This document shows, one piece after another, positions 11,347 through 41,965 of a stretch of 64,000 nucleotides of DNA. Position 1 is the first letter of the stretch, and every line of letters starts with the position of its first letter. The position numbers were made by a program, and so were the translations under genes. The notes below the pieces were generated by a model. That model ran no database searches. It saw only the letters and a program-made list of their open reading frames with translations, and was not told the origin of the DNA. Source of the DNA: Bacteroidota bacterium. GTDB taxonomy: Bacteria; Bacteroidota; Bacteroidia; Flavobacteriales_F; PHOS-HE28. Where the stretch lies: contig JACTMO010000053.1 of NCBI GenBank assembly GCA_014584605.1, positions 25,792-89,791 on the forward strand, in the 5' to 3' direction.

Positions 11347-11391
11347 GGGGTCGAACTTACGCCACAGACCTGCGGGATCGGAAAGGTCTTC

Positions 11392-15343: not shown

Positions 15344-15346
15344 GGT

Positions 15347-16597
15347 TCAGGGGGTGGGAGCTGCTTCGGCCAGCAGGTCCTGCAGAAAGCGCTCCAGGTT
15401 GCGCTTGTAATGGGTGTAGTGCTCCCCAGTGCCCGGTCCGTAGAAACCCGTCCGGATGCGCCTTACCCGGCCGCCGCGGTCGATGAAGATGCAGGTGGGA
15501 TAGCCCATCACATGGTCCAGGAAGGGCAGTTTGGCACTGGCCACCTCCTTGTTGGCATTGCCGGCGTAAACGATGGGGTATTGCACGCCGAGGCGGTCGC
15601 GGAAGTGCCGCAGGGCGTTCAAGGAGCGCGCCTCGTCCTCATACTTCTCGAAGGCGATGGCGATCACCTCCAGGCCTGCGGTCCGGTACTTGCCGTAGAG
15701 CTCGTCCAGCAGCACGGTCTCGTCCACACAGTTGGGGCACCAGCTGCCCATCACCTGCACCATGAGCACCTTGCCGGCGAAACGCGGGTCCTTGGGGCTC
15801 ACCGCTCCCCCATCGATGGACGGGAAACGGAAGTCCACCATGGCGTGGCCCTCCTTCAGGAAGGTGAGCGAATCGGGATCGCGCAACCGGAAGTCCGGGT
15901 CGCGTACGGCCAACCAGGGCTCCTGCCAGTGGGTGCCGCTCCAGTAGCGGCCCAGCAGGCTGTCGTTGCGCATCACGGCCTTGAACAGGAAGGCGTGCGA
16001 CCCGTCGAAGCAGGAGAGCTTCAGGGAGTCGTGGTCCACCACGCCCTCCAGGAAGCGATAATCACCTGTTTCCGTTCCGAAGGTGCCGGTGAGGTGGTCG
16101 TGGTCCTGGGTGAAGAGCCCCAGCGCATCGTAGGCCTCGGGCGATCCCGGGCTGAAGCGGGTACGCCATTGCCCGGAGAGGTCGCCCACAGGCCGGGCCA
16201 CCTCGGTGAACCGCGTGGCGTCGCCGGCCCGTGCGGTAAAGGCGATGCGGTAGTCGGGTCCCTTGAGGTGGTTGTGCCAGAACCCGGTGATGGTGCTGTC
16301 GTTCGGCAGATGGCCCCGGAACTCCGAATCGAAGAGGGGCATGCGCACCCGGATGGAATCGCCGAGCAGGGCGATGTCGTCCACGACGATGCGCTCCTCA
16401 CCGTTATGCACCACCATGCGCCATGCGCCGCTGTCCTGATGCAGGTCGAACAGGAAGGGCAGTTCCTCTCCGTTCAGGTCGAGCACCATGCGCCAGGGGC
16501 CGGTGCGCGGTGCCGGCAGCTGCCGGGTGGCCACGGAGGTGCAGCCGCCCAAGGCCAGGGCGAGGATGAGCGGGAACAGAGCGGTGTTCGGGGCCAT
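15347..16597 (-). CDS. TlpA-like thioredoxin-fold (redoxin) lipoprotein with an N-terminal beta-rich domain
   Basis: C-terminal thioredoxin fold with a CxxC motif (VMGSWCPNCVDE) and AhpC/TSA-like context. Predicted lipoprotein signal (MAPNTALFPLILALALGGC). Start at internal M69 so the gene does not overlap the downstream ALDH gene. Confidence 0.7.
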   Translation of the reverse strand: MAPNTALFPLILALALGGCTSVATRQLPAPRTGPWRMVLDLNGEELPFLFDLHQDSGAWRMVVHNGEERIVVDDIALLGDSIRVRMPLFDSEFRGHLPNDSTITGFWHNHLKGPDYRIAFTARAGDATRFTEVARPVGDLSGQWRTRFSPGSPEAYDALGLFTQDHDHLTGTFGTETGDYRFLEGVVDHDSLKLSCFDGSHAFLFKAVMRNDSLLGRYWSGTHWQEPWLAVRDPDFRLRDPDSLTFLKEGHAMVDFRFPSIDGGAVSPKDPRFAGKVLMVQVMGSWCPNCVDETVLLDELYGKYRTAGLEVIAIAFEKYEDEARSLNALRHFRDRLGVQYPIVYAGNANKEVASAKLPFLDHVMGYPTCIFIDRGGRVRRIRTGFYGPGTGEHYTHYKRNLERFLQDLLAEAAPTP

Positions 16598-16667
16598 GGA
16601 CCGGGCGGCAAAGCTATCCGAGCATGGTGCACGGGCCATGCACGCAAGTGGGGGGCACCGTGGAAGG

Positions 16668-18227
16668 CTACAGGTCGAAGCTGATGCCCTGGGCCAGCGG
16701 CAGCTTGGTACCGTGGTTGATGGTGTTGGTCTGGCGACGCATGTAGGCCTTCCAGGCGTCGCTGCCGCTCTCGCGGCCGCCGCCGGTCTCCTTCTCCCCA
16801 CCGAAGGCGCCCCCGATCTCTGCTCCGCTGGTGCCGATGTTCACGTTGGCGATGCCGCAATCGCTGCCGGCCGCGCCCAGGAAGCGTTCCGCCTCGCGCA
16901 GGTCCAGCGTCATGATGGCGCTGCTGAGGCCCTGCTTCACGTTGTTCTGGATGGCGATGGCCTCGTCGAGGTCGCCGTTGTAACGCAGCAGGTAGAGGAT
17001 CGGTGCGAAGGTCTCCTCCTGCACGATGGCCATGTCGGCCGTGGCCTCCACCACGGCGGGCTTCACGTAACAGCCGCTCTCATAGGGGCCGCCGCTCAGC
17101 ACAGCGCCCGGCACCACCAGGCGCCCACCCTGTTGTTCGGCGGCCTGCAAAGCGGCCTGGTACATGGCCACCGCCGCCTTGTCGATCAGCGGGCCCACGT
17201 GGTTGCGTTCGTCCAGCGGGTCGCCGATGCGCAGCTGCCCGTACGCGTTCACCAGTTTCTGTTTGAAGCTGTCGTACACCTTGTGGTGGATGATCAGGCG
17301 GCGGGTGCTGGTGCAGCGCTGGCCGGCGGTGCCCACCGCGCCGAACACACAGCCGATGAGGGCCATGTCCAGGTCGGCCTTGTCGCTGATGATGATGGCG
17401 TTGTTGCCCCCCAGCTCCAGCAACGCACGGCCCAGGCGTTGACCCACGGCGGCGCCCACGGCTTTGCCCATGCGCGTGCTGCCGGTGGCGCTCACCAGCG
17501 GGATGCGCACGTCATGGCTCATCCATTCGCCCACCTCGCGGCCGCCGTTGACGATGCAGCTCACCCCCTCCGGCACGCCGTTGCGTGCGAAGACGCGGGC
17601 GGTGATCTGCTGGCACGCAATGCTGCACAGGGGCGTCTTTTCGCTGGGCTTCCAAAGGGTGACATCGCCGCAGACCCATGCCAGTGCGGTGTTCCAGCTC
17701 CACACGGCCACCGGGAAGTTGAAGGCCGTGATGATGCCCACCGGTCCCACCGGATGCCATTGTTCGTACATGCGATGATCGGGGCGCTCGCTGTGCATGG
17801 TGAGTCCGTGCAGCTGGCGGCTCAAACCCACGGCGAAGTCGCAGATGTCGATCATCTCCTGAACTTCGCCCAGCCCCTCCTGGTAGCTCTTGCCCATCTC
17901 GTAGCTCACCAGTTTGCCCAAGGCGGTCTTGTGCTGCCGCAGCTCCTCGCCCAGCTGGCGTACCACTTCGCCGCGCTTGGGCGCGGGCCACTTGCGCCAT
18001 GCAACGAACGCCTGTTGCGCAGTCGTCAGCACCTGTTCGTACTCCGCTCGCGAAGCGCCGCGCACCGTGCCGATCAGTGCGCCATCGACCGGGCTGTGGC
18101 TCTCCAGCCCCTCGCCGGCGCCAGGCAGCCAGGTGTTCCCGGTGGACACGCCGGAGTTCAAGTCCTGAACGCCGAGGGAGCGAAGCAGGTCGCCGATCCG
18201 CTGGTCGGGGAGGGTGATGGTGGACAT
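16668..18227 (-). CDS. Aldehyde dehydrogenase, ALDH7 family (alpha-aminoadipic/piperideine-6-carboxylate semialdehyde dehydrogenase-like)
   Basis: 519 aa. ALDH catalytic Cys motif (GQRCTS) and Glu motif (LELGGNNA). Strong overall similarity to the antiquitin/AmaB-type family (MSTITLPDQ...WRKWPAPKRGE...). Confidence 0.85.
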   Translation of the reverse strand: MSTITLPDQRIGDLLRSLGVQDLNSGVSTGNTWLPGAGEGLESHSPVDGALIGTVRGASRAEYEQVLTTAQQAFVAWRKWPAPKRGEVVRQLGEELRQHKTALGKLVSYEMGKSYQEGLGEVQEMIDICDFAVGLSRQLHGLTMHSERPDHRMYEQWHPVGPVGIITAFNFPVAVWSWNTALAWVCGDVTLWKPSEKTPLCSIACQQITARVFARNGVPEGVSCIVNGGREVGEWMSHDVRIPLVSATGSTRMGKAVGAAVGQRLGRALLELGGNNAIIISDKADLDMALIGCVFGAVGTAGQRCTSTRRLIIHHKVYDSFKQKLVNAYGQLRIGDPLDERNHVGPLIDKAAVAMYQAALQAAEQQGGRLVVPGAVLSGGPYESGCYVKPAVVEATADMAIVQEETFAPILYLLRYNGDLDEAIAIQNNVKQGLSSAIMTLDLREAERFLGAAGSDCGIANVNIGTSGAEIGGAFGGEKETGGGRESGSDAWKAYMRRQTNTINHGTKLPLAQGISFDL

Positions 18228-18472
18228 GGGGATGCAAAAAGGGCCGCAAAGGTAATCCCATCCGGCAGGGGTCTCCGGAAGGCGACGGCATCAGGACCCG
18301 TCCGGTTCGACCCGATCGCGGAGCATTTCGCTTAATTTACTGAGGTTCAACGAATTATATCATTTTATAGGGCGCCGTCCAGATCGCGCCAGGATCACCG
18401 AACGAGCACGGTTAATAGGTGCACCACTACCCCGGGGCCTCGAACGCGGCAAACGCGAGAAAAACGACCTTA

Positions 18473-19402
18473 TCAGCGAGCCGACTTCCTGAAGAGGTAC
18501 AACGAGCTGGATGTTGGTCGCTCCGTGAACGCGCTCTTTAAGTTGGACCATGCGCCCAAGAGCACACCGCGCAGCAGGGCCATCACCGGGCCGTGGCCGC
18601 GATAGCGTTCGCTGAGCATGGCGATGTAAGGTGCGTCCAGCCACATGCGTCGCATCGCGACGAGCTCGAATCCATGGGACGACACCAGCCGGAGCATGTC
18701 GCTTCGACGGAAATGCGAGAGGTGGCGCGGTACGTCGTAGGCGGCCCAGTCCGGGCCGTAGTACGCCGCATCCCAGCTGTCGCGATCGGGCACCGCGATC
18801 AGCAGCAGGGCTTGATCGGCCGAGAGCGCATAGAGCCGCTTCAGGGTGCCGCGCAGGTCGGGCAGATGCTCGAGCACATGCCAGAGCGTGACCACATGGA
18901 ACTGTTCGAGCCCGGGTACCAGGTCCAGGCTCGGCACGACCGGGATCGCGTGGTGGGCGATGGCTTGTTCGCGGGCCTTGAGAGCAGGCTCCACCCCGGT
19001 AACGAGATAGCCTTTGCGCTTGAGGTGCCCGAGGAATTCGCCGGTACCGCAACCCACATCGAGCACACGACCATGGGGTCGGTGCTGGGCGACCAGGGCG
19101 TGTTTGCGGTTCAAGGCCCAGCGTCGGGCCAGCTTGTAAAGGCGGTCGCCGAGGGAGCGGCTGCTGTTGCTGTGGCTGATGTAGTCGTCGCTCTCGTAGT
19201 AGCGACCGAGCGCCTGGGCGGCGGGGCGGGGAGAGGTGGAACGAAAGCCGCAGCTGGCGCAGTCCACCAGCTGGAAGCGCTCATGCGAAACGGTGTGGTC
19301 CTCCACCTCGAGCGAGGGCCGTAGATGTTCCGCCTCGCAGAGAGGGCATTGGACCAGGGATTCCAGGCCAGGCGGTTCCACGTGGAACGATCGGTCGTTC
19401 AT
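18473..19402 (-). CDS. Class I SAM-dependent methyltransferase
   Basis: 309 aa. Motif I ([11 protein letters not shown]) and post-I acidic residue. N-terminal Cys pairs (CPLCEAE...CASCGF) suggest a zinc ribbon. Overlaps the mnmG stop by 4 bp. Confidence 0.7.
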
Positions 19403-21279
19403 CGGCCCATGTAAACGAGCAGGACGCTGATATCGGCGGGAGAGACTCCGCTGATCCGGCTGGCCTGTCCCAGAGTGGTGGGCCTGACCCGGTCCAGCTT
19501 CTGCCGCGCCTCGATGCTCAGCGAACTGAGTTTGTTGTAATCCAGGTCCACATCGAGGGGAACGTGCTCCAGTCGGCTGAGGCGTGAGGCCAAGTCGCGT
19601 TCACGCTCCAGATAGCCCTCGTACTTCACCTGGATCTCCACTTGTTCGATGGCCTCCTCGGCCAGATCTCCTGCCTGGTTGCGCCATTCGGAACGCTGTT
19701 CGAACAGGGGCTCCAGGTCGGCGAAGGTGAGCTGGGGTCGGGCGAGCAGGTCGAACAGGCGTGTGCGTTGTTTCACCGCCGTGGTTCCACGTGGAACGAT
19801 CACGGCGTTGGCGTCTTCCGCCGCAGGGCTTTCGGCCTTGAGCCCGGCCACCAAGGCCTTGCTGAGCCGCTGTTTGTGTTCCACCCGCCGCATGCGCGCG
19901 TCGTCGGCCAGGCCGAGCGCGTGGCTCCGGGGGGTGAGCCGCAGGTCGGCATTGTCCTGGCGCAGCAGGATGCGGAACTCGGCCCGGCTGGTGAACATGC
20001 GGTAGGGTTCCTCGGTGCCCTTGGTGATCAGATCGTCCACCAGCACGCCGATGTAGGCCTCATCCCGGCCCAGCACAAAGGGGTCCGTTCCCCGCACCTT
20101 CAAGTGTGCATTGATGCCCGCCATCAAACCCTGGCAGGCGGCCTCTTCGTAGCCGGTGGTGCCGTTGATCTGCCCGGCGAAGTAGAGCCCGTCCACCAGT
20201 TTGGTCTCCAGGCTGTGCCGCAGCTGGGTGGGGGGAAAATAGTCGTATTCCACGGCATACCCGGGTCGGAACATCCGTGCGTGGGCAAAGCCCGGGATCT
20301 TGCGCAAAGCGGCCAGCTGCACCTCTTCGGGCAGGCTGGTGCTGAAACCGTTGATGTAGGTCTCCACCGTATCCCAGCCCTCCGGCTCCACGAAGATCTG
20401 GTGTCGGTCCTTGTCGGCGAAGCGGTCGATCTTGTCCTCGATGCTCGGGCAATAGCGGGGGCCGATGCCCTGGATACGCCCGTTGAACATGGGGCTCCGG
20501 TCGAAGCCCGTGCGCAGGATGTCGTGCACCTCGGGGCTGGTGTAGGTCATCCAGCAGCTCAACTGCCGCTCCAGCGGTCGGGTGGCGGTGGAGTAGCTGA
20601 ACTTGCCCGGTCGCTCATCCCCGGGCTGTTCCTCCATGGCCCGGTGGTCGATGCTTCGGCCGTCCACCCGGGGGGGGGTGCCGGTCTTCATCCGCCCCGC
20701 CTCGAAGCCCAGCCCCACCAACTGCTCGGTGATGCCGTGGCTGGCCTTCTCGCCGGCGCGTCCACCCCCGATCTGGCGCTCACCGATGTGCATCACCCCG
20801 TTCATGAAGGTGCCGCTGGTGAGCACCACGGCCCGGCAGGGGATCCGCATGCCCAGCCCGGTGACCACACCCGCCACACGACCAGCCTCCAGGAGTATCC
20901 GGGTCACCGTATCCTGCCAGAAATGGACGTTGGGGGTTTGCTCCAGCAGGCGGCGCCATTCGGCCGCGAAGCGGTTGCGGTCGTTCTGGGTGCGGGGGCT
21001 CCACATGGCGGGGCCCTTGCTGCGGTTCAGCATGCGGAACTGCACGGCGCTGCGGTCGCTGACGATGCCGCTGTAGCCTCCCAGCGCATCGATCTCCCGC
21101 ACGATCTGCCCCTTGGCCACACCGCCCATGGCGGGGTTGCAGCTCATCTGCCCGATCACCCCCATGTTCATGGTCACCAGCAACACGCGCGAGCCCAGGT
21201 TGGCCGCTGCGGCAGCGGCCTCACAGCCGGCGTGCCCGCCACCCACCACCACCACGTCGTAGCCTTCGGTCCAGCTCAC
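19399..21279 (-). CDS. mnmG: tRNA uridine-5-carboxymethylaminomethyl modification enzyme MnmG (GidA)
   Basis: 626 aa. FAD-binding motif ([16 protein letters not shown]). Conserved MnmG motifs ([26 protein letters not shown]). Apparent GTG start. Confidence 0.95.
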
Positions 21280-21280
21280 G

Positions 21281-21334
21281 GTTCGATCGTGGAAAACCCG
21301 GTGTGTTCCACGTGGAACGATCGTGGAAAACCGA
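21281..21334. repeat. Direct repeat GATCGTGGAAAACC(C/G) flanking the palindrome GTTCCACGTGGAAC, immediately upstream of the mnmG start
   Basis: Sequence read directly: gttcGATCGTGGAAAACCcggtgtGTTCCACGTGGAACGATCGTGGAAAACCgaagg. The 18-mer GTTCCACGTGGAACGATC recurs exactly at 19375-19392 and 19784-19801. Confidence 0.5.
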
Positions 21335-21396
21335 AGGAGGACGGTTGGTCGAACACCGTTGTGCGGGACGTGGTCATGGGGTGTCCAGCCGGTGGA

Positions 21397-21930
21397 TCAA
21401 CGGCTGTGGTAGAAGATGAGGCTGGCTTTGGCCAGGGTGTTCGCCCAGAGGTTGAAGCTCACCATGGCAGGGCCGGCCTGGGCGTCCAGCCCAAGACGTT
21501 CCACGCCCAAGGCAAACACGGTGATCACGTACCGATGAGTTCCATGCCCCGGGGGCGGGCAGGGTCCACCATACCCCGGTTCGCCGTAGTCGTTGCGGAC
21601 CTGTATGGCCGAGGCGGGCAGGTCCGTGCTGTCGGGGCTTCCGGCCCCGGTGGGCAGGGTGTTGGTGGTGGCGGGCAGATCGAAGACCACCCAGTGCCAC
21701 CACCCGCTGTCGGTGGGCGCATCCGGGTCGTGGATGGTCACCGCAAAGCTCTTGGTACCGGCCGGGGCGTTGGCCCAGCTGAGTTGTGGGCTCAGGTTCC
21801 GGCCGTTGCAGCCCGACCCGTGGTACAGGTGCGGTTCGGTGGCCTGGCCGCCGAGGTCTGCGCTGCTGAGGGTGAAGGTCGGTTGCGGGGTGGGGGACTT
21901 CGCGGGTGGGTTGGCCGGTGGGGCGGGCAT
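21397..21930 (-). CDS. YbhB/YbcL-family PEBP (phosphatidylethanolamine-binding protein-like)
   Basis: PEBP/YbhB motifs (LSPQLSWANAPAGTKSFAVTIHDPDAP...GYGGPCPPPGHGTHRYVITVFAL). Start taken at internal M58; the upstream in-frame part looks non-coding. Confidence 0.65.
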   Translation of the reverse strand: MPAPPANPPAKSPTPQPTFTLSSADLGGQATEPHLYHGSGCNGRNLSPQLSWANAPAGTKSFAVTIHDPDAPTDSGWWHWVVFDLPATTNTLPTGAGSPDSTDLPASAIQVRNDYGEPGYGGPCPPPGHGTHRYVITVFALGVERLGLDAQAGPAMVSFNLWANTLAKASLIFYHSR

Positions 21931-21995
21931 GGTCGGCGAATGGATCCCCGAAGGTAAACCGTCCGGCCCGAGCGTACCGGAGCCAAGAGGGGCGT

Positions 21996-22078: not shown

Positions 22079-23716
22079 TCACAGGATCTCCGCAGGGTCA
22101 TCGACCAGGCGGAAGCTGTCGCCGTCGAAGAGGCCCCGGTCGCTCAGCTTCAGGTGGGGGATCACCAGCAGCGCCATGAAGCTCAGCGTCATGTACGGCG
22201 CAGCGAGGGTGCTGCCGAGTTCCCGGGCCTCGCGGTCCAGCTCGGCGTAGGCGTCGGCCACGGTCCAGGCGTCCGCATCGGTCATGATGCCGGCCACGGG
22301 CAGGGGCAGCACACGGTGGTGGGCACCGTCGGCGAGACTGATGCCGCCCTGGTGCGCGATCACCTGGTTGATGGCGGCACAGAGGTCGTGGTCGTTGGTG
22401 CCCACGGCCACGATGTTGTGGCTGTCGTGGGCCACGCTGCCGGCGATGGCACCGCGCTTGAGCCCGAAGTTGGTGACCCAGGCCACCGCCGGGGGAGCAT
22501 CGCCGTAGCGGTTCACCACGGCGATCTTCAGCAGGTCCTTGGCCGTGTCGGTCACGCATCGACCTTCGACCACGGTGGGGGGCATCCAGCGTTTTCGCGT
22601 GATCAGCTGGCCGTCCAGGACCTCGATCACCAGCAGGTCGCTGGCGCAGGCCGCCACTGCGAAGTCCTCGGGCCGCTTGGCCGTGCAACGGAAGTGGTTG
22701 GGCCGGTCGGCGGGCACGCGGGCAATGAGGCTCCGGCCCTGTTCGGCCACCAGCTGCCCGCGCACCCAGGTGCGTTGTACGCGGAAGTCCGTCAGGTCCT
22801 GCACCTGGATGAGGTCGGCGCCATCGCCGGGGCGCAGCAGGCCCACCGGCATGCGGTAGTGCTCCACGGGGTTGATGCAGGCCGCGCGCAGCACCTGGAA
22901 CACATCGTGGCCCAGGGCCACCGCGCGTGCGCACAGCCGGTCGATGTGACCGGCCACCAGGCTGTCCGGATGTTTGTCGTCGCTGCAGAACATGAGCCTG
23001 GGCGCATGGTCGTGCAGCAGGCCGATCAGCGCCTCGAAGTTCCGGGCGGCGCTGCCTTCGCGCACCAGGATCTTCATGCCGCAGGCCAGCTTGTCCAGCG
23101 CCTCCTCGCGGGTGACGCATTCGTGGTCGGTGCTGATGCCGGCGGCGATGTAGCGCCGGGCCAGCTCACCGCGCAGGCCGGGGGCGTGGCCGTCCACAGG
23201 CTTGCCCAGGCGGTGGGCGTGCGCGATCGCGGCCATCACGCCGGGGTCGCCGTTGAGCACCCCGGGGAAGTTCATCATCTCGGCCAGGTAGCCGATGTCG
23301 GGATCGGCCAGCAGGTTCCCGATCGCCTCCGCGTCGATGCGGGCGCCGGCGGTCTCGAAGGGCGTGGCCGGCACGCAGCTCGGTGCGCCGAAGTGGAAAT
23401 GAAAGGGCACACGCTTGCCGTTGGCGATCATGTACGCCACGCCTTCCGTGCCCAGCACGTTGGCGATCTCGTGCGGGTCGCTCACGGTGGCCACGGTGCC
23501 GTGCACCACCGCCACCCGGGCGAACTCCGAGGGGATGAGCATGCTGCTCTCCACGTGCACATGGGCATCCACGAAGCCCGGCAGCAGGTAGCCCTCCACC
23601 GGCCCGGGCAGCTCGGTGATCGCCGCGATGCGCCCTTCCGCCACGCGCAGCTCCACCGGCACGATGCGCCGTGCGGGGATGTCCACCAGGTTGCCGCGGA
23701 CGGTGAGCTCGGACAT
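22079..23716 (-). CDS. ade: Adenine deaminase
   Basis: 545 aa. Amidohydrolase metal-binding motifs (GFVDAHVHVESS, HECV...). Global similarity to Ade (adenine deaminase). Confidence 0.9.
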   Translation of the reverse strand: MSELTVRGNLVDIPARRIVPVELRVAEGRIAAITELPGPVEGYLLPGFVDAHVHVESSMLIPSEFARVAVVHGTVATVSDPHEIANVLGTEGVAYMIANGKRVPFHFHFGAPSCVPATPFETAGARIDAEAIGNLLADPDIGYLAEMMNFPGVLNGDPGVMAAIAHAHRLGKPVDGHAPGLRGELARRYIAAGISTDHECVTREEALDKLACGMKILVREGSAARNFEALIGLLHDHAPRLMFCSDDKHPDSLVAGHIDRLCARAVALGHDVFQVLRAACINPVEHYRMPVGLLRPGDGADLIQVQDLTDFRVQRTWVRGQLVAEQGRSLIARVPADRPNHFRCTAKRPEDFAVAACASDLLVIEVLDGQLITRKRWMPPTVVEGRCVTDTAKDLLKIAVVNRYGDAPPAVAWVTNFGLKRGAIAGSVAHDSHNIVAVGTNDHDLCAAINQVIAHQGGISLADGAHHRVLPLPVAGIMTDADAWTVADAYAELDREARELGSTLAAPYMTLSFMALLVIPHLKLSDRGLFDGDSFRLVDDPAEIL

Positions 23717-23754
23717 GGGGCCAAGGTATCCCGGAACGGGGTGGGTAAGTTCGC

Positions 23755-25878
23755 GTGGTACAGGCGGTGCATCTGCTGCCCGTGGGGGGCGTGGCGGACG
23801 ACCCCATGCGGTACAAGCGGATCCAATACCGCTACGACCTGATCAGCGGCAAGGTGCGGGAGGTGAAGTACCAGGAGGGGCACCACGACCAGTTCTTCCA
23901 CCGGTACGGGTACGATGCGGACAACCGGATCACCAAGGCGGAGACGAGCCTGGACGGCAGCCTGTGGCACACCGACGCGGAGTACTTCTACTACCCGCAC
24001 GGCCCGCTGCAACGGGTGGAACTGGGCGAGCAGAAGGTGCAAGGCATGGACCATGCCTACACCCTGCAGGGCTGGCTGAAGGGCATCAACAGCGAGCTGC
24101 TGACCCCGGAGAACGACATGGGTCTGGATGGCGTGGTGGGAGGCGGGAATGCCAACGAACTCGTGGGCCGGGATGCCTATGGCCTGAGCCTCACGTATCA
24201 TGGCAACGACTATCGCGCCATCGACAATGCCCGCTGGGACAATACCAATGCCCACCGGCCCTTTGCCCCGCAAGCGTGGACCACGCCGGACTGGCATCCG
24301 CTCTACAACGGGAACATCGCCGGCACGGTGCACAGCCTGCAGCCCTTCGGGGTGGGCGGCTGGCAGGGCACGGCGGGCGAAGTGGGGCAGGCGCTGGCGG
24401 GGCTGTACCGTTACGACCAGCTGAACCGCCTCCGCGAGATGCGCACCCGCGCCGGGCTTGACGATGCGACGAACGATTGGACCACACTGCCCACGCCCAC
24501 CGGGCCGGATGCCGAGAAGTACCGCAGCAGCTACACCTACGACGCCAACGGCAACATCCGCACGGCCGACCGCTGGGACCAGGCCGGAGCGCCCTACGAC
24601 GCGCTGGCGTACGGCTACAAGGAAGCCTCCGGGGCCAAACTGCTGCGCAACCGCCTGTACCAGGTGGACGACCTGGCCGACCCGACCAACGCGCTGGTGA
24701 ACGCCGGCCCCGGGGAGCAGGCCGTGGACATCCTCCACACGGGGCCCACGGGCTTCGATCCGCAGGACCAGAACATCGAGACGGCCTACAACTACCGCTA
24801 CGACCAGCTGGGCAACCTGACCCACGACGTGGCGGCGCACATCGACGCCATCGCGTGGACGGCGGCGGGAAAAGTGAGCACTGTGGACCACGCCGCGGGC
24901 CAGGGTCCCGACCTGGCGTTCGGGTACGGGGAGGGCGGGCATCGCATCAGCAAGCAGGTGGGCGGCACGGTGGGCGACCCGGGCACCTACAGGGAGCATT
25001 ACATTCGGGATGCGCAAGGGAACCTCATGGCCACCTACCGGCTGCACCCCAACGGGGCCTTCCGCGTGCAGGAGCGGCCCATCTACGGCAGCAGCCGGGT
25101 GGGCCTTTACGCGGGCAAGGTGGACCTGTACCCGGCCACGCAGCTGGTGCCCATGCCGCAGGTGATCCCGGTGTTCGATGCCTTGCTGCGCTACGAGCTC
25201 ACCGACCACTTGGGCAACGTGGCGGCCGTGGTGACAGGCCGGTTGTTACCGGGTGATGGCGCCCCGCACGAGGCGGAGGTGATCAGCGCGCAGGGGTATG
25301 AACCGTTCGGTTCCCTGTTGCCCGGACGCAACTACAGCAGCGACGCGTATAGGTTCGGGTTCCAGGGGCAGGAGAAGGACAACGAGGTCTATGGAAGCGA
25401 AGGCACCAGCTACGCCTTGGACTACCGCATGCACGATGCCAGGGTCGGAAGGTTCCTGAGCATCGATCCGCTGGCGTTCCTGTTCCCTTGGAATTCACCC
25501 TATGCCTTCAGCGAGAATCGCGTCTTGGACACGGTGGAACTTGAAGGATCGGAAGCGGTACCGACCCCGGACAAGGCAGAAGACCCCAAGTGGGGCCTTC
25601 CTGATGGAGGTGAAGGCTGGACGGAGGGGGGCTCATACGACGACGGGAACGGCTTTTCTTTCAAGAGCTTCAAAGGGCCACGACCGGATCCCGGTGCTGG
25701 GGAGCCCTCGTCTTCGCCTTCTGCGGGGAATGCGCCAAGTCTGTTCCCCAGCGGAAAGCCACCCATTCCTAAGCCCGGGGGAGGCGGAGGCTTCGTGGGC
25801 TGGCGATCTCACAAGGGAGGCCGAACTTTTCATTCAACTACACGCCGCCATCGTCGCCGTTCAACAACCCTTGGATGA
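23755..25878 (+). CDS. Rhs/YD-repeat protein, N-terminally truncated, with RHS repeat-associated core and a short divergent C-terminal tip
   Basis: 707 aa. YD repeats (YTYDANGNI, YRYDQLGNL). RHS core motif (DPLAFLFPWNSPYAFSENRVLDTVELEG). The frame is closed immediately upstream (39 bp from the divergent ade start), so no N-terminal domain is present. The last ~380 bp drop in GC. Confidence 0.75.
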   Translation: MVQAVHLLPVGGVADDPMRYKRIQYRYDLISGKVREVKYQEGHHDQFFHRYGYDADNRITKAETSLDGSLWHTDAEYFYYPHGPLQRVELGEQKVQGMDHAYTLQGWLKGINSELLTPENDMGLDGVVGGGNANELVGRDAYGLSLTYHGNDYRAIDNARWDNTNAHRPFAPQAWTTPDWHPLYNGNIAGTVHSLQPFGVGGWQGTAGEVGQALAGLYRYDQLNRLREMRTRAGLDDATNDWTTLPTPTGPDAEKYRSSYTYDANGNIRTADRWDQAGAPYDALAYGYKEASGAKLLRNRLYQVDDLADPTNALVNAGPGEQAVDILHTGPTGFDPQDQNIETAYNYRYDQLGNLTHDVAAHIDAIAWTAAGKVSTVDHAAGQGPDLAFGYGEGGHRISKQVGGTVGDPGTYREHYIRDAQGNLMATYRLHPNGAFRVQERPIYGSSRVGLYAGKVDLYPATQLVPMPQVIPVFDALLRYELTDHLGNVAAVVTGRLLPGDGAPHEAEVISAQGYEPFGSLLPGRNYSSDAYRFGFQGQEKDNEVYGSEGTSYALDYRMHDARVGRFLSIDPLAFLFPWNSPYAFSENRVLDTVELEGSEAVPTPDKAEDPKWGLPDGGEGWTEGGSYDDGNGFSFKSFKGPRPDPGAGEPSSSPSAGNAPSLFPSGKPPIPKPGGGGGFVGWRSHKGGRTFHSTTRRHRRRSTTLG

Positions 25879-26111
25879 GTGGAGCTAACGATGTGAACAC
25901 AGGAATTGGGATAGGCACCGGAGTGGGGAGGCATGTTTGGATACGTCTCAAAACCGGCCCCCCTCAGGTATGCCAGGAACGTCAATGGTGTAACACGTTC
26001 GGCCCCTGTTCTAACGCGAGCGCATACGATCACATCCCTTCGTGCTGCTGCGAAACTGTCGCGGCTGAATGTGATCACCTCAGTACTTGGCACGGGATAC
26101 ACGTTTGGTAA
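25875..26111 (+). CDS. Small Cys-rich ORF overlapping the Rhs stop (candidate immunity or orphan protein)
   Basis: 78 aa (…CQERQWCNTFGPCSNASAYDHIPSCCCETVAAECDHL…). ATGA overlap with the Rhs stop. Lies in the local low-GC (~50%) island at 25880-26170. Confidence 0.25.
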   Translation: MSGANDVNTGIGIGTGVGRHVWIRLKTGPPQVCQERQWCNTFGPCSNASAYDHIPSCCCETVAAECDHLSTWHGIHVW

Positions 26112-26170
26112 GATCAACCGCGATTATCAACGTGGGGGCTGGAACAATATCAGCAACTGGGATCTATTGG

Positions 26171-26920
26171 ATGCTGCCCTTGGTGGCCTTGGCGGCCTCC
26201 CTGCTCACGTTCGTGAGCGGCTTCGGGCTGGGCACCCTGCTGCTGCCGGCCTTCGCGCTCTTCCTGCCGTTGCCGCAGGCCGTGGCGCTCACCGCGGTGG
26301 TGCATCTGCTGAACAACGTCTTCAAGTTCACGCTGCTGCGCCCCCACGTGCACCGGCCCACCCTGCTGGCCTTCGGGCTGCCGGCCATCGCCGGCGCCTT
26401 CCTGGGGGCCTGGCTGCTGGGGCGGCTGGGCACGCTGGAACCCCTCTACCACGGCGCCCGCCACGCGGTGGGGCCCTTGCAGGTCACCATCGCCCTGCTG
26501 ATGGCGCTCTTCGCCCTGCTGGAGCTATCGCCTGCGCTCAAGGGCCTGCGCTTCGATGCGCGCTGGCGCACCGTGGGCGGGCTGGTCAGTGGCCTCTTCG
26601 GCGGGCTCAGCGGCCACCAGGGGGCGCTGCGCAGCATGTTCCTCGTACACGGGGGGCTGACCCCGGAGGGTTACGTGGCCACGGGCACGGCGATCGCCCT
26701 GTTGGTGGACCTGGCGCGCATCCCGGTGTACCTCGCGGCGCTGGACATCGCGGCGCTGCGCTTGCATGCGGGGCTGCTTGCGGTGTGCGTGCTCGCCGCC
26801 TTTGCTGGCGCATGGTGGGGACGCAAGCTGCTGCCCTCCCTCACGTACCGCGGGGTGCAGCTCGCCGTGGCGGTGCTGCTGCTGGCCATCGCCGCAGGCT
26901 TGCTGGCGGGGCTGATCTGA
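26171..26920 (+). CDS. TauE/SafE-family sulfite-exporter-like membrane protein (DUF81)
   Basis: ~249 aa. Multiple TM helices. Duplicated TauE motifs (LTFVSGFGLGTLLLP..., GLFGGLSGHQGALRSMFLV). Confidence 0.8.
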   Translation: MLPLVALAASLLTFVSGFGLGTLLLPAFALFLPLPQAVALTAVVHLLNNVFKFTLLRPHVHRPTLLAFGLPAIAGAFLGAWLLGRLGTLEPLYHGARHAVGPLQVTIALLMALFALLELSPALKGLRFDARWRTVGGLVSGLFGGLSGHQGALRSMFLVHGGLTPEGYVATGTAIALLVDLARIPVYLAALDIAALRLHAGLLAVCVLAAFAGAWWGRKLLPSLTYRGVQLAVAVLLLAIAAGLLAGLI

Positions 26921-26923
26921 GGC

Positions 26924-28465
26924 CTACAGCGGGATGTTCCCGTGCTTCTTGCGCGGCAGGCGGTCCACCTTGTTGCGGAGCATGCGCAGGGCGTGCATCA
27001 CCTTGATGCGCGTTTCGCTGGGGCGGATCACCTCGTCCACGTAGCCGCGTGCCGCCGCCTCGTACGGATTGGCGAACTGCTCCTTGTACTCGGCTTCCTT
27101 CTCCTGCCATTTGGCCTGGGGGTCCTTGGCCTTGGCGATCTCGTTCTTGAAGATGATCTCGGCGGCACCCTTGGCTCCCATCACGGCGATCTCCGCACTG
27201 GGCCAGGCGTAGTTCATGTCGCAGCCGATGTGCTTGCTGTTCATCACGTCGTAGGCGCCCCCGTAGGCCTTGCGGGTGATGACGGTGATGCGGGGCACGG
27301 TGGCCTCGCTGAAGGCGTAGAGCAGCTTGGCGCCGTGGTCGATGATACCGCGCCACTCCTGGTCCGTACCGGGCAGGAAGCCGGGCACGTCCACGAACAC
27401 GAGCAGGGGGATGTTGAAGGCGTCGCAGAAACGCACGAAGCGCGCGGCCTTGATGCTGGCATCGATGTCGAGCACACCGGCGAGCACGGCCGGCTGGTTG
27501 GCCACACAGCCCACGGTGCGGCCCTCCACACGGGCGAACCCGATCACCATGTTGCGGGCGTAGTCGGCGTGCACCTCCATGCTGCTGTCGGGGTCGATCA
27601 CCGCGTTCATCACCTGGCGGATGTCGTAGGGCTGGTTGGGGTTGGCCGGGATGATGCTGTCGAGCTCGGGCCGCCGTTCGTCGCCGGCGGTGTAGGGGAG
27701 CGCGGGCGGCTCCTCCTCGCAATTGCCGGGGATGAAGGACACCAGGCGGCGCAGGGCCTGCAGCGCCTCCAGCTCGTTGGGCGCGGTGAAGTGCGCCACC
27801 CCGCTCTTGCCGGCGTGGGTGGCGGCGCCGCCGAGCTCCTCGGCGGTCACCGTCTCGTGCGTCACGGTCTTCACCACGTTGGGCCCGGTGACGAACATGT
27901 AGCTGGTGCCCTCCACCATGAGCACGAAGTCCGTGAGCGCCGGGCTGTACACCGCGCCGCCGGCACAGGGCCCCATGATGGCGCTGATCTGCGGCACCAC
28001 CCCGCTGCTGCGCACGTTGCGGAAGAAGATGTCCGCGTAGCCGCCCAGGCTCACCACGCCTTCCTGGATGCGGGCGCCGCCGCTGTCGTTGAGGCCGATC
28101 ACCGGGGCCCCGTTCTGCATGGCCAGGTCCATGATGCGGCAGATCTTCTCGGCATGCGCCTCGGCCAGCGAGCCGCCCAGCACGGTGAAGTCCTGGCTGA
28201 AGACGTACACCAGGCGCCCCTCGATGGTGCCGTAGCCGGTGACCACTCCGTCGCCCAGGAACACCTGGTCGGCCAGCCCGAAGTTGGTGCTGCGGTGGGT
28301 CACCAGCTGGCCGATCTCCTGAAAGCTGCCCTCGTCCAAGAGCATGTCCACCCGCTCGCGCGCGGTGAGCTTGCCCTTCTTGTGCTGGGCGGCGATGCGG
28401 TCCGGGCCACCGCCCTGGAGGGCCTGCTCGGTGCGTTCGGCGAGGGTCTTGAAGGCGTCGTTCAT
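26924..28465 (-). CDS. pccB: Acyl-CoA (propionyl/methylmalonyl-CoA) carboxylase carboxyltransferase beta subunit
   Basis: ~513 aa from internal M65. Carboxyl-transferase N and C domains ([67 protein letters not shown]). Confidence 0.9.
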
Positions 28466-28544
28466 CGGCGGGGCGGGATGCAGGGGCGGCCAAGTTAACG
28501 GGCGGGGGCATGGCCCGGCGTGCCGCGTCGCGTACTTTGCGGGC

Positions 28545-30461
28545 ATGTCGTGGCGCTTTGCGGACCTGCGGGTGCGCACCAAGCTGCTGATCACCCTGGG
28601 CATCCCGGTGGCGGGCCTGGTGCTGCTGATCGCCAAGCAGGTGGACGGCAGCCTCAAGCGGCGCGATGTGCTGAGCTACATCAACCTGCAGGCGCGCAAC
28701 ATCGGGCGGTTGAGCAGCCTGTTGCACGAGCTTCAGGAGGAGAACGCGGCGGCCATGGCCTACCTGTCGGGCGTGCAGGAGAACCAGGCGCGGCTGGCGC
28801 TGCAGTACGTCCGCACCGACGGGGCGGCGGACGCCCTCGACGATCCGGAGCTGGTGCTGGGCCAGGATGTGGAGGGCGCGGCCTCGCTCGCGGGCCTGGG
28901 CCTGCTGCGCCAGCGGATACAGGAGCGGCGGATCTCCAGTGCCGACGCGGACATGGCCTACCGCACCATGCGCGCCGCCCTGCTCAACGACCTGAGCCGC
29001 GTGGCCAAGCTGGCGTTGGACCCCGAGACCAAGGACCGCCTGTACTCACACCTCAGCCTGCTGAACGCGATCGATGCCCAGGCGGGGGTGTGCATCACCC
29101 TGGGGCGCGGCTTCGGCAAGGGCTGGCTGGCGATGGCCGAACTGGGTGCGGTGGGGGATGCCCTGGCGCGCTACGCCACCAACCTGTACCTCTTCGAGCG
29201 CGACGCGCCCGCCGAGGTGCTGGCGGCCTACCAGCGGACCTTCCAGGGCCCCGAGGTCAACTTCGTGCGCACCGTCATGGGCACCGTGCAGGAGAAACGG
29301 GCGCTGGAGGGCCTCAACGTGGACCCTGCGGAGTGGCGCACCAGCAGCGATCGGGCCGTGACCCTGCTGAACACGGTGGCCGCCTTGTCCCTCGCCCGGA
29401 TCGTGGAGTCCACCGAGGTCAACCGGCGCGACGCCGAGCGGCGGCTCGGACTGGTGGTCGCGGCCTTCTTCGGGGTGCTGGTGGCGGTGGTGGCCATGGC
29501 CTGGGCGCTGCTGCAGGGCATGCAGCGCACCGTGAACGAGGTGACCCGGGCGGCGGGCGCCCTGGCCGAAGGGGACATCCGCGCGAAGGTGCCCGTGACC
29601 AGCAACGACGAGTTCGGCAGGATGGCCCGCAGCTTCAACCGCATGATCGAGAACGTGGGCGCCTTGAGCGCCAGCGCCGAGGCCATCGGCAAGGGCAACT
29701 ACGGCACGGTGGTGCCGGTGCGCGGCGCCGCCGACGTGCTGGGCGTGGCGTTGACCCGCATGAAGGAGAACCTGCGCACGGCCCGCGACCTGGATGCCGA
29801 GCAGAAGAAAGCCCTCGAGGAGGAGAAGGCCAAGCTGCAGCAGGCCAACGACCGCATCAACGTGCTCATCAAGGAGATCCACCACCGGGTGAAGAACAAC
29901 CTGCAGGTGATCGCCAGCCTGCTGCGCCTGCAGCGCGCCACCATCGACGACGAGCGGCTGCAGCATGTGTTCGACCAGAGCCAGAGCCGGGTGGCGTCCA
30001 TGGCCCTGATCCACGAGAAGCTCTACCGCGGCGACGAGCTGGTGCATCTGGACCTGGCCCAGTACATCCGGGAGCTGTTCGCCGAGCTGGTGCAGCTGAA
30101 CAACGTGCGCGACACGATCACCTACAAGGCCGAGGTGGACCCCGGGGTCACCTTCGACCTCACCACCATGGTGCCGTTGGGGCTGGTGCTCAACGAGCTC
30201 ATCACCAACTCGTTCAAGCACGCCTTCAAGGACCGGCCTGCGGGCCGGATCGTGCTGGCCGTCCGGCGGGTGGGCGAGCAGGCCTTCGACCTGCTCTATA
30301 CCGACGACGGGGTGGGCATCCCGCCGCACCGGATCGGGGGCGACGGCAGCACCCTGGGGGTGAGCCTGATCGAGAGCCTCGTGGAACAGATGAACGGCCT
30401 GCTCACGGTGGAGAGCGATGCCGGGGGCACGCGGTACCACATCCGCTTCCGGCCGCGGTAG
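28545..30461 (+). CDS. Membrane sensor histidine kinase (two TM helices, periplasmic sensor domain, HAMP, HisKA_2, HATPase_c); no adjacent response regulator
   Basis: TM1 ([17 protein letters not shown]), a ~330-aa periplasmic domain that may be NIT-like, TM2, HAMP ([30 protein letters not shown]), HisKA_2 ([15 protein letters not shown]), HATPase ([13 protein letters not shown]...DDGVGIP). Start at internal M68. Confidence 0.85.
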
Positions 30462-30465
30462 GGCC

Positions 30466-31218
30466 TCAGCCCTGGGCCAGCTCGGCCTCCACCTCGTCGG
30501 TGAGCTCCATGTTGTGGAAGACGGCGTTGACGTCGTCGTCCTCCTCCAGCATGTCGATCAGCCGCATCACGTTGCGCGCCGTGGCCAGGTCCACCGGGAT
30601 GGTGGTCAGGGGCAGGCGCTTGAGCTCGGCGCTCTTGCTTTCCACGCCCAGCTGGTCCAGCCGTTGTTGCATGGCGCCGAAGCCCTGGAAGGGCACGTAC
30701 ACCACGAAGCCCTCCTCGTCGCGCAGCACATCGTCGGCCCCCGCGTCGATCAGCTCCATCTCGAACTCGTCGGCATCGCGCCCCTTGAGCGCGGCCGCTT
30801 CGATGACGAACTCTCCCTTGCGCTCGAACACGTGGGCCAGCGAGCCGTTGGTGCCCAGGTTGCTGTCGCACTTGCTGAAGTAGCTGCGCACGTTGCCCAC
30901 CGTCCGGTTCACGTTGTTGGTGCTGGCGTCCACGAAGAGGGCCACCCCGCCGGGCGCGTAGCCCTCATAGGTGACCTCGGTGTAGTCCGCCTCGCCACCC
31001 CCGGCCGCCTTTTTGATGGCGCGCTCGATGTTGTCCTTGGGCATGTTGGCCCCGCGGGCGTTCTGGATGGCCATGCGCAGCCGCATGTTGGCCTCCGGGC
31101 TGGGGCCTCCGGCCTTCACGGCCATGGAGATCTCCTTGCCGATGCGGGTGAAGAGCTTGCTCAGCTTGGCGTTGCGCGCGAAGATCTTGTGCTTGCGTTT
31201 CTCGAAGATGCGGCCCAT
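30466..31218 (-). CDS. yebC: YebC/PmpR-family transcriptional regulatory protein
   Basis: ~250 aa from internal M40. YebC motifs (MGRIFEKRKHKI, NIERAIKKAAG, EVTYEGYAPGGVALFVD). Confidence 0.9.
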   Translation of the reverse strand: MGRIFEKRKHKIFARNAKLSKLFTRIGKEISMAVKAGGPSPEANMRLRMAIQNARGANMPKDNIERAIKKAAGGGEADYTEVTYEGYAPGGVALFVDASTNNVNRTVGNVRSYFSKCDSNLGTNGSLAHVFERKGEFVIEAAALKGRDADEFEMELIDAGADDVLRDEEGFVVYVPFQGFGAMQQRLDQLGVESKSAELKRLPLTTIPVDLATARNVMRLIDMLEEDDDVNAVFHNMELTDEVEAELAQG

Positions 31219-31499
31219 GGTGCGGTGATGGATGAGGCGTGTAACGCACGTGCACGTGCGCACAAAGGGTCGCAAAGTTAGGAACGACCCCACGAACCCC
31301 GGGCCGCAGCCCAGGGCAAGGACCCTTGCGGACACCCGGACCGATGATGGCGATCACGAGGGCTTGCGGGACCGGCCGTACCCCGCACCACAAGGACCAT
31401 GCTGACCGGCAAGGGCACGTTGACCACGAATGCGAAGCAGCTCATTCATGGCAATATGGGCTTACTATTACGGTACCGAAAGGCCAACACCATCCGCCG

Positions 31500-33197
31500 A
31501 TGCGTGCAAAGGGTGTGAGCTTGCTGTTGCCTCTGGTCGTAGCGGTACTGCATGCCACGGCCCAGGACCTCGCCACGCTGGGCCAGCAGGATAACTTCCG
31601 CCTGAGCGCGGGTCTGCAGGCGCAGTTCACGTTCTACCAGGCGCACGGCATCGATCCGCGGCGCACGCCCTGGTCCTGGTCGCTCAGCGGCACGCCCACG
31701 GCCACCATCGCCGGGGTGGACCTGCCCTTCCTGCTGGTGATCGGCGACCAGCAGCGCTCGTTCCAGCAGCCCTTCAACCAGTTCGGCATCAGCCCCAAAT
31801 ACAAATGGGCCAAGCTGCACCTGGGCTATCAGGACGTCAGCTTCTCCAAGTTCACCATGGCGGGCTATCGCGCGCTGATGGCCGGCGTGGAGCTGAACCC
31901 GGGGAAGTTCCGCTTCGGCTTCCTCTACGGCCGCTTCCAGAAGGCCGTGGAAGAGGACACCACCGCGGTGTACGACCCCTCGAAGTTCATCAGCGACGTG
32001 CCCGTGGCGGCCTATGAGCGCAAGGGCTTCGCGGTGAAGGTGGGCGTGGGCACCGAGGAGGAGCACGTGGACCTGGTGCTGCTGCGCGCCAAGGACGACC
32101 CGCGCTCCATCCGGCGGCCGGTGCGTACCGCCCTGGCCCCTGCGGGGAACCTGGTGGCCGGGCTGAAGGGCCGGGTGAAGCTGGCCAAGGCCCTGCATTG
32201 GGACTTCGATGTGGCGGCCAGCGAGTACGTGCGTGACGTGGAGGCCCCGGCGCTCACCGGCGATGCCGGGCCCATCACCACGGCCTTGTCCGGCATTTTG
32301 GGGCCGAACACCAGCAGCCAGAGCCTGATGGCCTTGGAGACCGGCCTGCAGCTGAAGCGCAAGCGCGCCCGCTACAAACTCACCTACCGCAGGGTGGACC
32401 CCGACTTCAAGAGCATGGGTGCCTACTACCTGCAGACCGATGTGGAGCAGGTGACCGGCACGGTGACGGCCACCCTGCTCAAGGGCAGGCTCAGCACCAA
32501 CCTCACCGCGGGCTGGCAGCACAACAACCTGAAGAAGCTGCGGGAGTCCACGGCACGGCGCATCATCGGCAACCTGAGCCTGAACTATACCGCCAAGAAG
32601 GTCTTCGGCTGCCTGGTGAACTACACCAACTTCGGCATCACACAGACGCCGGAACGCCGCAGCGTGAACGATACCACCCTGCTGGAGCAGGTGAGCCAGA
32701 ACCTGCTGGTGCAGCCGCGTGCCCGCTTCGCCGCAGCCAATGGCGGCCACATGGCCACATACACGTTCAACTATTTCGCGCTCAGCGACCGCAGTGAGAA
32801 CGCCTTCAGCAGCGCCCAGCTCACCGGCTTCCACAACGACCTGGCCTACACGCGCAACTGGAAGCGGGCACAGGCCATGCTCGGCGGCGGGTTGATCTGG
32901 CGCCGTACGGAGAACTTCATCGGGCGCATGGAAAGCCGGGGCGTACATGCCGAGGCCGGCCGCGCCTGGCTGAAGAAGGACCGCCTGCGCACCGAGCTGC
33001 GCACCAGCTTTCTGGCCAACACGCTGCCCGCCGGTGGCGACGGCAGTACCTGGCAGCTGGACCTGCGCGCCACCTGGCAACTGGACAAGCTCGCCATCTC
33101 GCTCACCGTGGGCCATCAGGAAAACCGGAGCCGTGATGCCACCGTGCCCTCCTTCACCGAGGACCTGGGGCAGCTCGGCGTCAATTACCGCTTCTGA
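31500..33197 (+). CDS. Predicted outer-membrane beta-barrel protein (uncharacterised family)
   Basis: ~565 aa. Signal peptide (MRAKGVSLLLPLVVAVLHATAQD). Alternating amphipathic beta-strand pattern throughout. C-terminal aromatic residue (…LGVNYRF). Its stop lies 2 bp before the start of the giant gene. Confidence 0.6.
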   Translation: MRAKGVSLLLPLVVAVLHATAQDLATLGQQDNFRLSAGLQAQFTFYQAHGIDPRRTPWSWSLSGTPTATIAGVDLPFLLVIGDQQRSFQQPFNQFGISPKYKWAKLHLGYQDVSFSKFTMAGYRALMAGVELNPGKFRFGFLYGRFQKAVEEDTTAVYDPSKFISDVPVAAYERKGFAVKVGVGTEEEHVDLVLLRAKDDPRSIRRPVRTALAPAGNLVAGLKGRVKLAKALHWDFDVAASEYVRDVEAPALTGDAGPITTALSGILGPNTSSQSLMALETGLQLKRKRARYKLTYRRVDPDFKSMGAYYLQTDVEQVTGTVTATLLKGRLSTNLTAGWQHNNLKKLRESTARRIIGNLSLNYTAKKVFGCLVNYTNFGITQTPERRSVNDTTLLEQVSQNLLVQPRARFAAANGGHMATYTFNYFALSDRSENAFSSAQLTGFHNDLAYTRNWKRAQAMLGGGLIWRRTENFIGRMESRGVHAEAGRAWLKKDRLRTELRTSFLANTLPAGGDGSTWQLDLRATWQLDKLAISLTVGHQENRSRDATVPSFTEDLGQLGVNYRF

Positions 33198-33199
33198 CC

Positions 33200-41001: not shown

Positions 41002-41134
41002 GGTATCACGCCAGTGCTGACGCCGGCGCGTTCACGGCGTTCATCGCGTTCTACGCCCGGATGCCTTGGAAGGGATCCACAGCGAGCTTCTTGCGGGTCC
41101 CTTCGCCCGGCCCCTTCTCGTATTTTCGTCCCAA

Positions 41135-41918: not shown

Positions 41919-41965
41919 CACGGGCGGTCGCGGACGTATCCCCTCGTCGCGGTGCCCGCGTTCCT

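Follow-up and report, generated by a model that had tools for sequence, protein, structure and literature searches.

Is the Rhs-like locus next to the adenine deaminase gene ade a working polymorphic toxin with its immunity gene, or the remains of one? The question is raised by a 64-kb stretch of DNA from an uncultured Flavobacteriales bacterium (contig JACTMO010000053.1, positions 25,792 to 89,791; called the window below and numbered from its first base). In it, an open reading frame (ORF) of 707 codons with YD repeats starts close to ade, and its stop codon overlaps a Cys-rich ORF of 78 codons. The original prediction, made from the sequence alone, was an orphan toxin/immunity cassette at the end of a 5'-truncated Rhs gene. 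We found that the observation is real, and that its interpretation is right in part only. Very probably, the 2390 bp at 23782-26171 are a no longer functional remnant of an Rhs polymorphic-toxin gene, situated within the 5' end of the gene for the TauE transporter. Compared with intact homologues, the locus shows the frame disruptions and truncations by which a pseudogene or relic is recognised, and they are reproducible in independent data.

The toxin domain is split over three reading frames

The large ORF spans 23755-25878 on the forward strand and begins 38 nt from the divergent ade start (23716), as had been noted. From about its tenth residue on, it matches Rhs/YD proteins. The 626 homologues come nearly all from Flavobacteriales or Bacteroidota metagenome-assembled genomes (MAGs) and are frequently named 'RHS repeat-associated protein'; the best non-self one has an E-value of 3e-220. 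A search with the C-terminus of the closest intact homologue (P0002) led to a 346-residue orphan Rhs piece from another MAG (P0124), whose toxin domain has its counterpart in the window spread over three consecutive reading frames. By tblastn, P0124 aligns with the window in a single high-scoring segment (25291-26199, E = 1e-115) that crosses three stop codons. DNA alignments with two different intact genes, that of P0002 in L001 and that of P0124 in L008, place a 1-nt gap at 25790-25800, where its position is ambiguous over 11 nt, and a 2-nt gap at 25927/25928.

The first part of the toxin domain (25801-25927; LAISQGRPNFSFNYTPPSSPFNNPWMSGANDVNTGIGIGTGVG) is read in the +2 frame only. It is found by tblastn with the C-terminus of P0002 (E = 1.3e-5) and matches P0124 without gaps once the frame is repaired. 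The 1-nt deletion throws the reading out of frame until a premature TGA (25876-25878) closes the 707-codon ORF, and the 2-nt deletion between 25927 and 25928 restores the original frame for the middle part of the domain (25928-26176; GMFGYVSKPAPLRYARNVNGVTRSAPVLTRAHTITSLRAAAKLSRLNVITSVLGTGYTFGKINRDYQRGGWNNISNWDLLDA), which is truncated before the last 39 residues. When N was inserted at the first indel site and NN at the second, the repaired reading was open for 808 codons, and its last 209 residues aligned gap-free to residues 92-300 of P0124 (78% identity, E = 3e-106). The 82-residue in-frame piece encoded by 25928-26176 had 16 phmmer matches among 1.84 billion representatives (best: E = 5.4e-39, 84% identity); one of them, P0272, is a low-complexity false positive, which leaves 15 genuine homologues. 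These homologues all run about 45 residues further, including the segment NPVGWGIGIG...Y. A kinship of the frame-1 peptide with the toxins of P0002, P0012 and P0047 was rejected: its BLAST support ends after the first 22 residues, and the true counterpart is P0124.

These alignments change the reading of both the C-terminal tip and the small ORF. The tip, originally described as having no obvious known toxin fold, consists in part of a conserved pre-toxin linker and in part of read-through after the frameshift. Given the two deletions, the basic tail of the predicted protein ('...GWRSHKGGRTFHSTTRRHRRRSTTLG' / '...VGWRSHKGGRTFHSTTRRHRRRSTTLG') is an out-of-frame translation, and everything after about residue 680 is evidently a recognisable toxin domain read out of frame. 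The same deletions account for the small ORF (25875-26111). Its ATGA overlap with the stop of the large ORF (25875-25878) and its seven cysteines are as described. However, only its codons 2-18 (SGANDVNTGIGIGTGVG) are true-frame toxin codons, matching P0124 at 14 of 17 residues, and codons 19-78, which hold all seven cysteines (positions 33-66), are toxin DNA read out of frame. This ORF is a by-product of the 2-nt deletion within toxin-coding DNA, and neither a gene nor an immunity determinant.

The true toxin domain belongs to a conserved, unannotated family of 16 clusters among the same representatives, with no Pfam or PDB relative. Its conserved features read NTGIG...KYAQRxNGxxRSAPxLSRA...LGRxNxVTxVLG...DYxxGGW...NPVGWGIGIG. 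Neither Pfam nor NCBIfam matched the C-terminal domains, the small ORF or a 95-residue ORF on the minus strand, and a search of all PDB chain sequences gave no similarity to the toxin domain at E ≤ 1. An AlphaFold2 model of P0124, built from a 7-sequence alignment, was too poor for a fold search (mean predicted local distance difference test score of 38.6).

The fragment has lost both ends of the gene

Upstream of the toxin, the Rhs/YD shell fragment (23782-25296) corresponds to the C-terminal part of the shell of homologues with 2300-4900 residues. It is followed by the RHS-associated core domain (25297-25548), which TIGR03696 locates at residues 515-596 and which ends in ...NRVLDTVELEG; the predicted core motif DPLAFLFPWNSPYAFSENRVLDTVELEG is present at residues 571-598. 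Both relevant profiles score the ORF below their cut-offs, with 18.1 bits against 22 for Pfam RHS_repeat and 31.7 bits against 32.5 for TIGR03696; a full-length homologue in L015 passes RHS_repeat. At the end of the core, Ser599 (25549-25551) stands in place of the leucine of ELEGL, which is invariant in seven homologues. This leucine may lie at the autoproteolysis site, and its replacement is consistent with relaxed constraint. The pre-toxin linker (25549-25790; PTPDKAEDPKWGLPDGGEGW...KPGGGGG), still in the frame of the ORF, is common to P0002, P0012, P0123, P0124 and P0259.

The 5' truncation proposed originally is real, and the fragment is cut at its 3' end too. Full-length homologues have 2327-4908 residues. 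Residue 19 of the ORF aligns with residue 1402 of the 2327-residue homologue (L019) and with residue 3066 of the 3856-residue one (L015). At least 1400 residues are therefore missing from the N-terminus, and alignment with the full-length homologues puts the missing region at ≥1400-3000 residues rather than the 500-700 first proposed. With Rhs homology starting at 23782, the N-terminal secretion/delivery region and the complete shell have been lost; the 5'-truncated fragment keeps the core-encoding homology. The protein of L015 carries DUF6443, a beta-propeller, RHS repeats, PT-TG and an HNH toxin.

Short forms are common among the relatives of the ORF. They make up 72 of 119 homologues, of which about 35 start where the window ORF starts, around RYKRxDYxYDLISG (P0083, P0057, P0059 and P0088 among them), and several of the latter, at about 800 residues, begin with what resembles a signal peptide. 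Truncation or recombination may thus favour this point, or Bacteroidota may have a genuine 'short Rhs' architecture.

At the 3' end, the match of the window copy to P0124 stops at residue ~300-307, and the last 39 toxin residues, a hydrophobic Gly-zipper tail, are absent. Intact homologues extend some 40-46 residues beyond this point with a conserved, Gly-rich tail (NPVGWGIGIGIAAYYGARF...) that is moderately hydrophobic (Kyte-Doolittle 1.0-1.3 for residues 297-340 of P0124). Downstream of the relatives' toxins lie genes for proteins of 128, 130 and 139 residues, with three predicted membrane helices each. Their position, membrane topology and low GC make them likely immunity proteins. In the window, TauE directly follows the toxin remnant where relatives have the membrane-protein gene. 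Neither the toxin tail nor the three downstream membrane proteins of the relatives has a match in the 64 kb (tblastn, all E > 0.7), so the window holds no homologue of these immunity candidates and the predicted cassette does not stand. The comparison with relatives suggested originally does reveal toxin modules followed by a small membrane-protein gene there; the window copy is broken and lacks that gene.

Composition follows the same boundaries. GC falls from 0.676 (23782-25300) to 0.611 (25300-25790) and 0.538 (25791-26171), and GC at third codon positions (GC3) drops from ~0.9 to 0.5-0.68. The drop reported originally is thus real, but the last 125 codons of the ORF have a GC of 0.61 and values of 0.53-0.54 are reached only downstream of the stop, so that the range of 50-57% does not apply throughout. 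The idea of a lower-GC, horizontally swapped C-terminal toxin module holds for the family: in every host examined, toxin module and downstream membrane-protein gene have a GC of 0.44-0.55, versus 0.63-0.68 for the genome.

The fragment lies in the 5' end of TauE

Rhs DNA homology with the closest copy (L010) begins at 23782, the alignment placing the boundary at 23781/23782. The 37 nt upstream, GTAAGTTCG-(19 nt)-CTGCTGCCC, do not belong to Rhs. In four TauE orthologues (L055, L056, L137 and L138), this box and these codons, at the same spacing, make up the region before the gene and its first eight codons, and the local alignment score of the 37 nt to L055 was reached by 1 of 2000 shuffles. 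We interpret 23745-23781 as the displaced 5' end of TauE, with the box at 23745-23753, the native start position (GTG 23755 / GTA 23758) and the codons as far as CTG CTG CCC; this stretch contains the annotated start of the 707-codon ORF. The frame was said to open directly in YD repeats, but its first nine codons are the displaced TauE 5' end and Rhs follows only from 23782. We had also considered that Rhs homology reaches up to an in-frame TAA at 23746, with ade cutting the gene directly. We rejected this because the L010 alignment starts only at 23782 and the preceding 37 nt match the TauE 5' end better.

The exact box GTAAGTTCG occurs twice in the 64 kb, and its other copy lies 5 nt upstream of the start of another gene. 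This 9-mer (23745-23753, and 11352-11360 on the minus strand) stands 1-5 nt upstream of the start codons of the TauE orthologues and of a PAS histidine kinase gene (8326-11346). It resembles the Bacteroidetes -7 promoter box, TAnnTTTG, and may mark leaderless or very-short-leader transcripts.

On the right, blastn alignments with the TauE genes of four relatives (L055, L137, L138 and L139) all start exactly at 26172. Orthologues have 254 residues and begin M-L-A-T-L-L-L-P-L-V, whereas protein alignment shows the 249-residue window protein to begin M-L-P-L-V. Gene callers place its start at the ATG of 26171, giving a gene at 26171-26920 on the forward strand. The toxin parent supplies ...CTATTGGATGCTG and the TauE parent TGCTGCCCTTGGTGG; TGCTG (26172-26176) is common to both and constitutes a microhomology at the junction. 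The 8-bp direct repeat TGCTGCCC, at 23774-23781 on the TauE/Rhs junction and again at 26172-26179, brackets the 2390-bp insert. The A of the ATG of TauE comes from toxin DNA, and the native first five codons and the upstream region have been replaced. TauE itself looks functional, judging from its intact frame, a GC3 of 0.88 and a ratio of nonsynonymous to synonymous substitution rates (dN/dS) of 0.12-0.25. Its Pfam TauE match (PF01925, 1.8e-19) spans profile positions 3-235 of 237.

The Gly-zipper C-terminal helices and the membrane-embedded partner are features of the intact relatives and not of the window copy. By analogy, they suggest that the ancestral toxin acted on membranes by depolarising them. 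With slightly less than even confidence, we propose that the ancestral C-terminal domain (of the P0124/P0259 type) represents a new family of membrane-acting Bacteroidota polymorphic toxins with its own family of three-helix immunity proteins, and that the insertion rewired TauE to a start codon donated by the toxin.

Proposed origin and decay of the relic

The relic keeps the RHS core and the pre-toxin linker, preceded by the last ~500 residues of the YD shell and followed by about 80% of the C-terminal toxin domain. It has lost an N-terminal delivery and shell part of at least 1400 residues, the frame of the toxin (through deletions of 1 and 2 nt on either side of a TGA), the last 39 toxin residues and any immunity gene. 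Its arrival would be due to illegitimate, microhomology-mediated recombination, either by insertion of the fragment or by a tandem duplication followed by deletions. The Rhs gene was presumably inactivated recently, because the sequence still carries a signature of purifying selection (dN/dS versus relatives of 0.26-0.30 in the shell and 0.06-0.19 in the toxin), to which it was subject during most of its past.

Two related MAGs are syntenic with the window left of the locus, sharing the block methyltransferase-gidA-PEBP at ~81% nucleotide identity. At the same place, both have an orphan Rhs piece that is more 5'-truncated, with an intact, different toxin and a likely immunity gene; one of them additionally has ParE modules beside it. 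The block TauE-carboxyltransferase-kinase-YebC lies elsewhere in both, adjoining xseA: 42 kb away and inverted in GCA_016715895.1, and ~19 kb downstream of an Rhs array in the other MAG. The slot of ade is occupied by ThrE and a lipoprotein gene in these two relatives, and ade was not found beside TauE, PEBP, gidA or the carboxyltransferase in any of 80 metagenomic loci. A single deletion or a single inversion between toxin and TauE was discarded as a scenario, since it accounts for the right junction and not for the TauE piece on the left. Two histories both fit: a fragment may have been inserted at a staggered break, or the junction of a tandem duplication may have joined the TauE 5' end to Rhs before two deletions took place.

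Rhs snippets of 30-36 nt (HIDAIAWTVA; AGQGPDLEFG; EQLGNLTQDAAA), 29/30 to 33/36 identical to the window Rhs, occur just upstream of an intact TauE in one relative (L055, 1-30) and just upstream of two ParE/antitoxin modules in another (L001, 12688-12718 and 13528-13564). They are debris of earlier Rhs rearrangements.

Several points weigh against a non-functional insert, or against parts of this account. The ORF is open for 707 codons and starts at the promoter and start position of TauE, so a truncated protein could be made. A low dN/dS does not by itself show decay. In the two relatives the orphan Rhs adjoins the same gidA-PEBP block, but TauE sits elsewhere beside xseA. This requires at least two rearrangements, and what looks like an insertion may be a duplication with deletions. 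The similarity at the left junction extends over 37 nt only, and was assessed by a mononucleotide shuffle test together with the conserved spacing. Finally, a full-length parental rhs or a trans-acting immunity gene might lie outside the 64 kb.

Alternative explanations

One alternative is compatible with a relic and is possible, if rather doubtful: the fragment may persist because TauE has come to rely on it, be it for a start codon, for upstream signals or for transcription that reads through from the displaced promoter at 23745. TauE is intact and under purifying selection, its ATG is a hybrid, and 2.4 kb now separate it from its native promoter-proximal box upstream. However, a new promoter could have arisen anywhere in the AT-richer region 25800-26170, and retention of the fragment may just reflect the short time since the event.

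It is unlikely that the fragment has been kept as a silent donor of homology for C-terminal exchange with a full-length rhs elsewhere in the genome. Orphan rhs modules have been described as such recombination donors in Salmonella (PMC3967940). The ~1.7 kb of shell and core are 79-88% identical to paralogues and orthologues, and the synonymous divergence (dS) from L011 is 0.29, below the 0.6-0.8 of flanking genes, which hints at exchange among Rhs copies. Yet recombinants would gain a frameshifted, tail-less toxin without an immunity gene. Moreover, the original prediction suggested a search for a full-length parental rhs and for a VgrG/PAAR context, and the window offers neither: tblastn found no other Rhs-like sequence in the 64 kb, where the nearby large ORFs are unrelated, and a Pfam scan of ten large ORFs revealed no type VI secretion system, VgrG or PAAR gene.

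Sequencing or assembly error, with false frameshifts or chimeric joins between ade and Rhs or between Rhs and TauE, is very improbable. Such errors were worth considering, since each indel falls in a G-rich run (GGAGGCGGAGG and GTGGGG), assemblies are often interrupted at Rhs repeats, and the contig of L055 ends inside an Rhs snippet. However, the identical 707-residue ORF is present on contigs from six sequencing runs, independently assembled and in two accession series. DNA alignment across the locus covered three of them (the other three were compared by the 707-residue ORF only): L002 and L003 match the window at 100% identity for 9761 and 9411 bp, which takes in the two junctions and the two indels, and L007 matches it at 99.97% for 3471 bp. 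The locus is not an assembly artefact, and the mis-join near the start of the ORF that the original prediction had allowed for did not materialise.

Least credible of all is the functional orphan cassette, with a novel, small and basic toxin tip on the 707-residue protein and the 78-residue Cys-rich ORF as its immunity protein: the low-GC tail with its ATGA overlap has the classic geometry, and relatives have orphan Rhs modules with a likely immunity gene at the syntenic place, but frameshifts in a conserved toxin domain have produced the tip after about residue 680 and most of the small ORF, no homologue or family matches either of them in its own frame whereas the alternative frame gives matches down to 5e-39, and the likely immunity proteins of this toxin family are three-helix membrane proteins of 128-139 residues, absent here.

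The non-functional relic that we favour is of a well-known kind and holds nothing surprising for specialists. Its interest is threefold. It shows that a tidy arrangement of a toxin and an overlapping small ORF can be frameshift debris, and it would be wrong to annotate the 78-residue ORF as an immunity gene. It is a base-resolved case of an element from rearrangement hotspots that decays and disturbs its neighbour, with TauE split, an 8-bp repeat left behind and a replacement start codon donated. The intact relatives (P0124, P0259 and P0002), together with their downstream membrane proteins, provide an uncharacterised toxin and likely-immunity family that is open to experiment.

Genomic neighbourhood

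The left neighbour of the relic is ade (22079-23716, minus strand), an intact adenine deaminase gene outside it (Pfam Adenine_deam_C 1.6e-58 and Amidohydro_1 2.2e-34; GC3 0.92). Its closest metagenomic relative is 70% identical, and it has no neighbourhood in common with the window among the 80 loci. The flanks differ in their similarity to the same two relatives: the left block (13928-21961) has ~81% DNA identity and the right block (26172-31224) 89-91%, which may reflect different histories, recombination or gene-specific constraint.

Further right, a segment of ~10.7 kb (31225-41947) is absent from three relatives (L056, L137 and L138), where YebC lies directly before a gene of 331 codons. 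It holds ORFs of 623, 2080 and 625 residues; a CarboxypepD_reg domain in the 2080-residue ORF was the only Pfam match. At 53892-55142, a PKD-domain protein with a Por_Secre_tail, the sorting domain of type IX secretion, indicates that the organism uses this secretion system. The 64 kb contain no tRNA genes.

Comparison with known systems

The closest precedents are the orphan rhs-CT/rhsI modules of Enterobacteria (Poole et al. 2011, PMC3150448; Koskiniemi et al. 2014, PMC3967940), including a Salmonella orphan (PMC7043789). Like them, the window has a 5'-truncated rhs piece that keeps homology to the core and carries a variable C-terminal toxin module of lower GC, and the relatives L001, L011 and L008 have such modules followed by a small membrane-protein gene. 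Unlike them, the toxin of the window is twice frameshifted and tail-less, without immunity gene; no full-length rhs lies upstream within the window, and the piece sits inside TauE and not in an rhs array.

For the toxin, a parallel is provided by Tse5 (PA2684), the Rhs effector of Pseudomonas aeruginosa whose C-terminal toxin forms pores and depolarises membranes (PMC9637101, PMC10684867), and by other glycine-zipper ionophoric polymorphic toxins, including ionophoric CdiA-CTs (PMC11630599, PMC12744356). Intact P0124, P0259, P0261 and P0262 also end in a moderately hydrophobic Gly-rich segment (NPVGWGIGIGIAAYYG) and are followed by polytopic membrane proteins. In contrast to the known toxins, their domain has no sequence similarity in PDB (E ≤ 1) and no Pfam family, and the window copy lacks the tail. 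The likeness to Tse5-CT or to ionophoric CdiA-CTs is one of analogy, which suggests a similar action and makes no claim of membership.

For the gene as a whole, the comparison is with the giant YD/Rhs proteins of Bacteroidota with an N-terminal DUF6443, such as the 3856-residue Pedobacter xixiisoli protein (L015). These proteins end in interchangeable toxins, PT-TG and HNH in the case of L015. Their last ~600 residues of shell and core align with the window ORF at 36-55% identity; the ORF differs from them in lacking at least 1400-3000 N-terminal residues, DUF6443 and the beta-propeller. The fragment descends from a polymorphic Rhs toxin gene of this giant YD-protein type of Bacteroidota.

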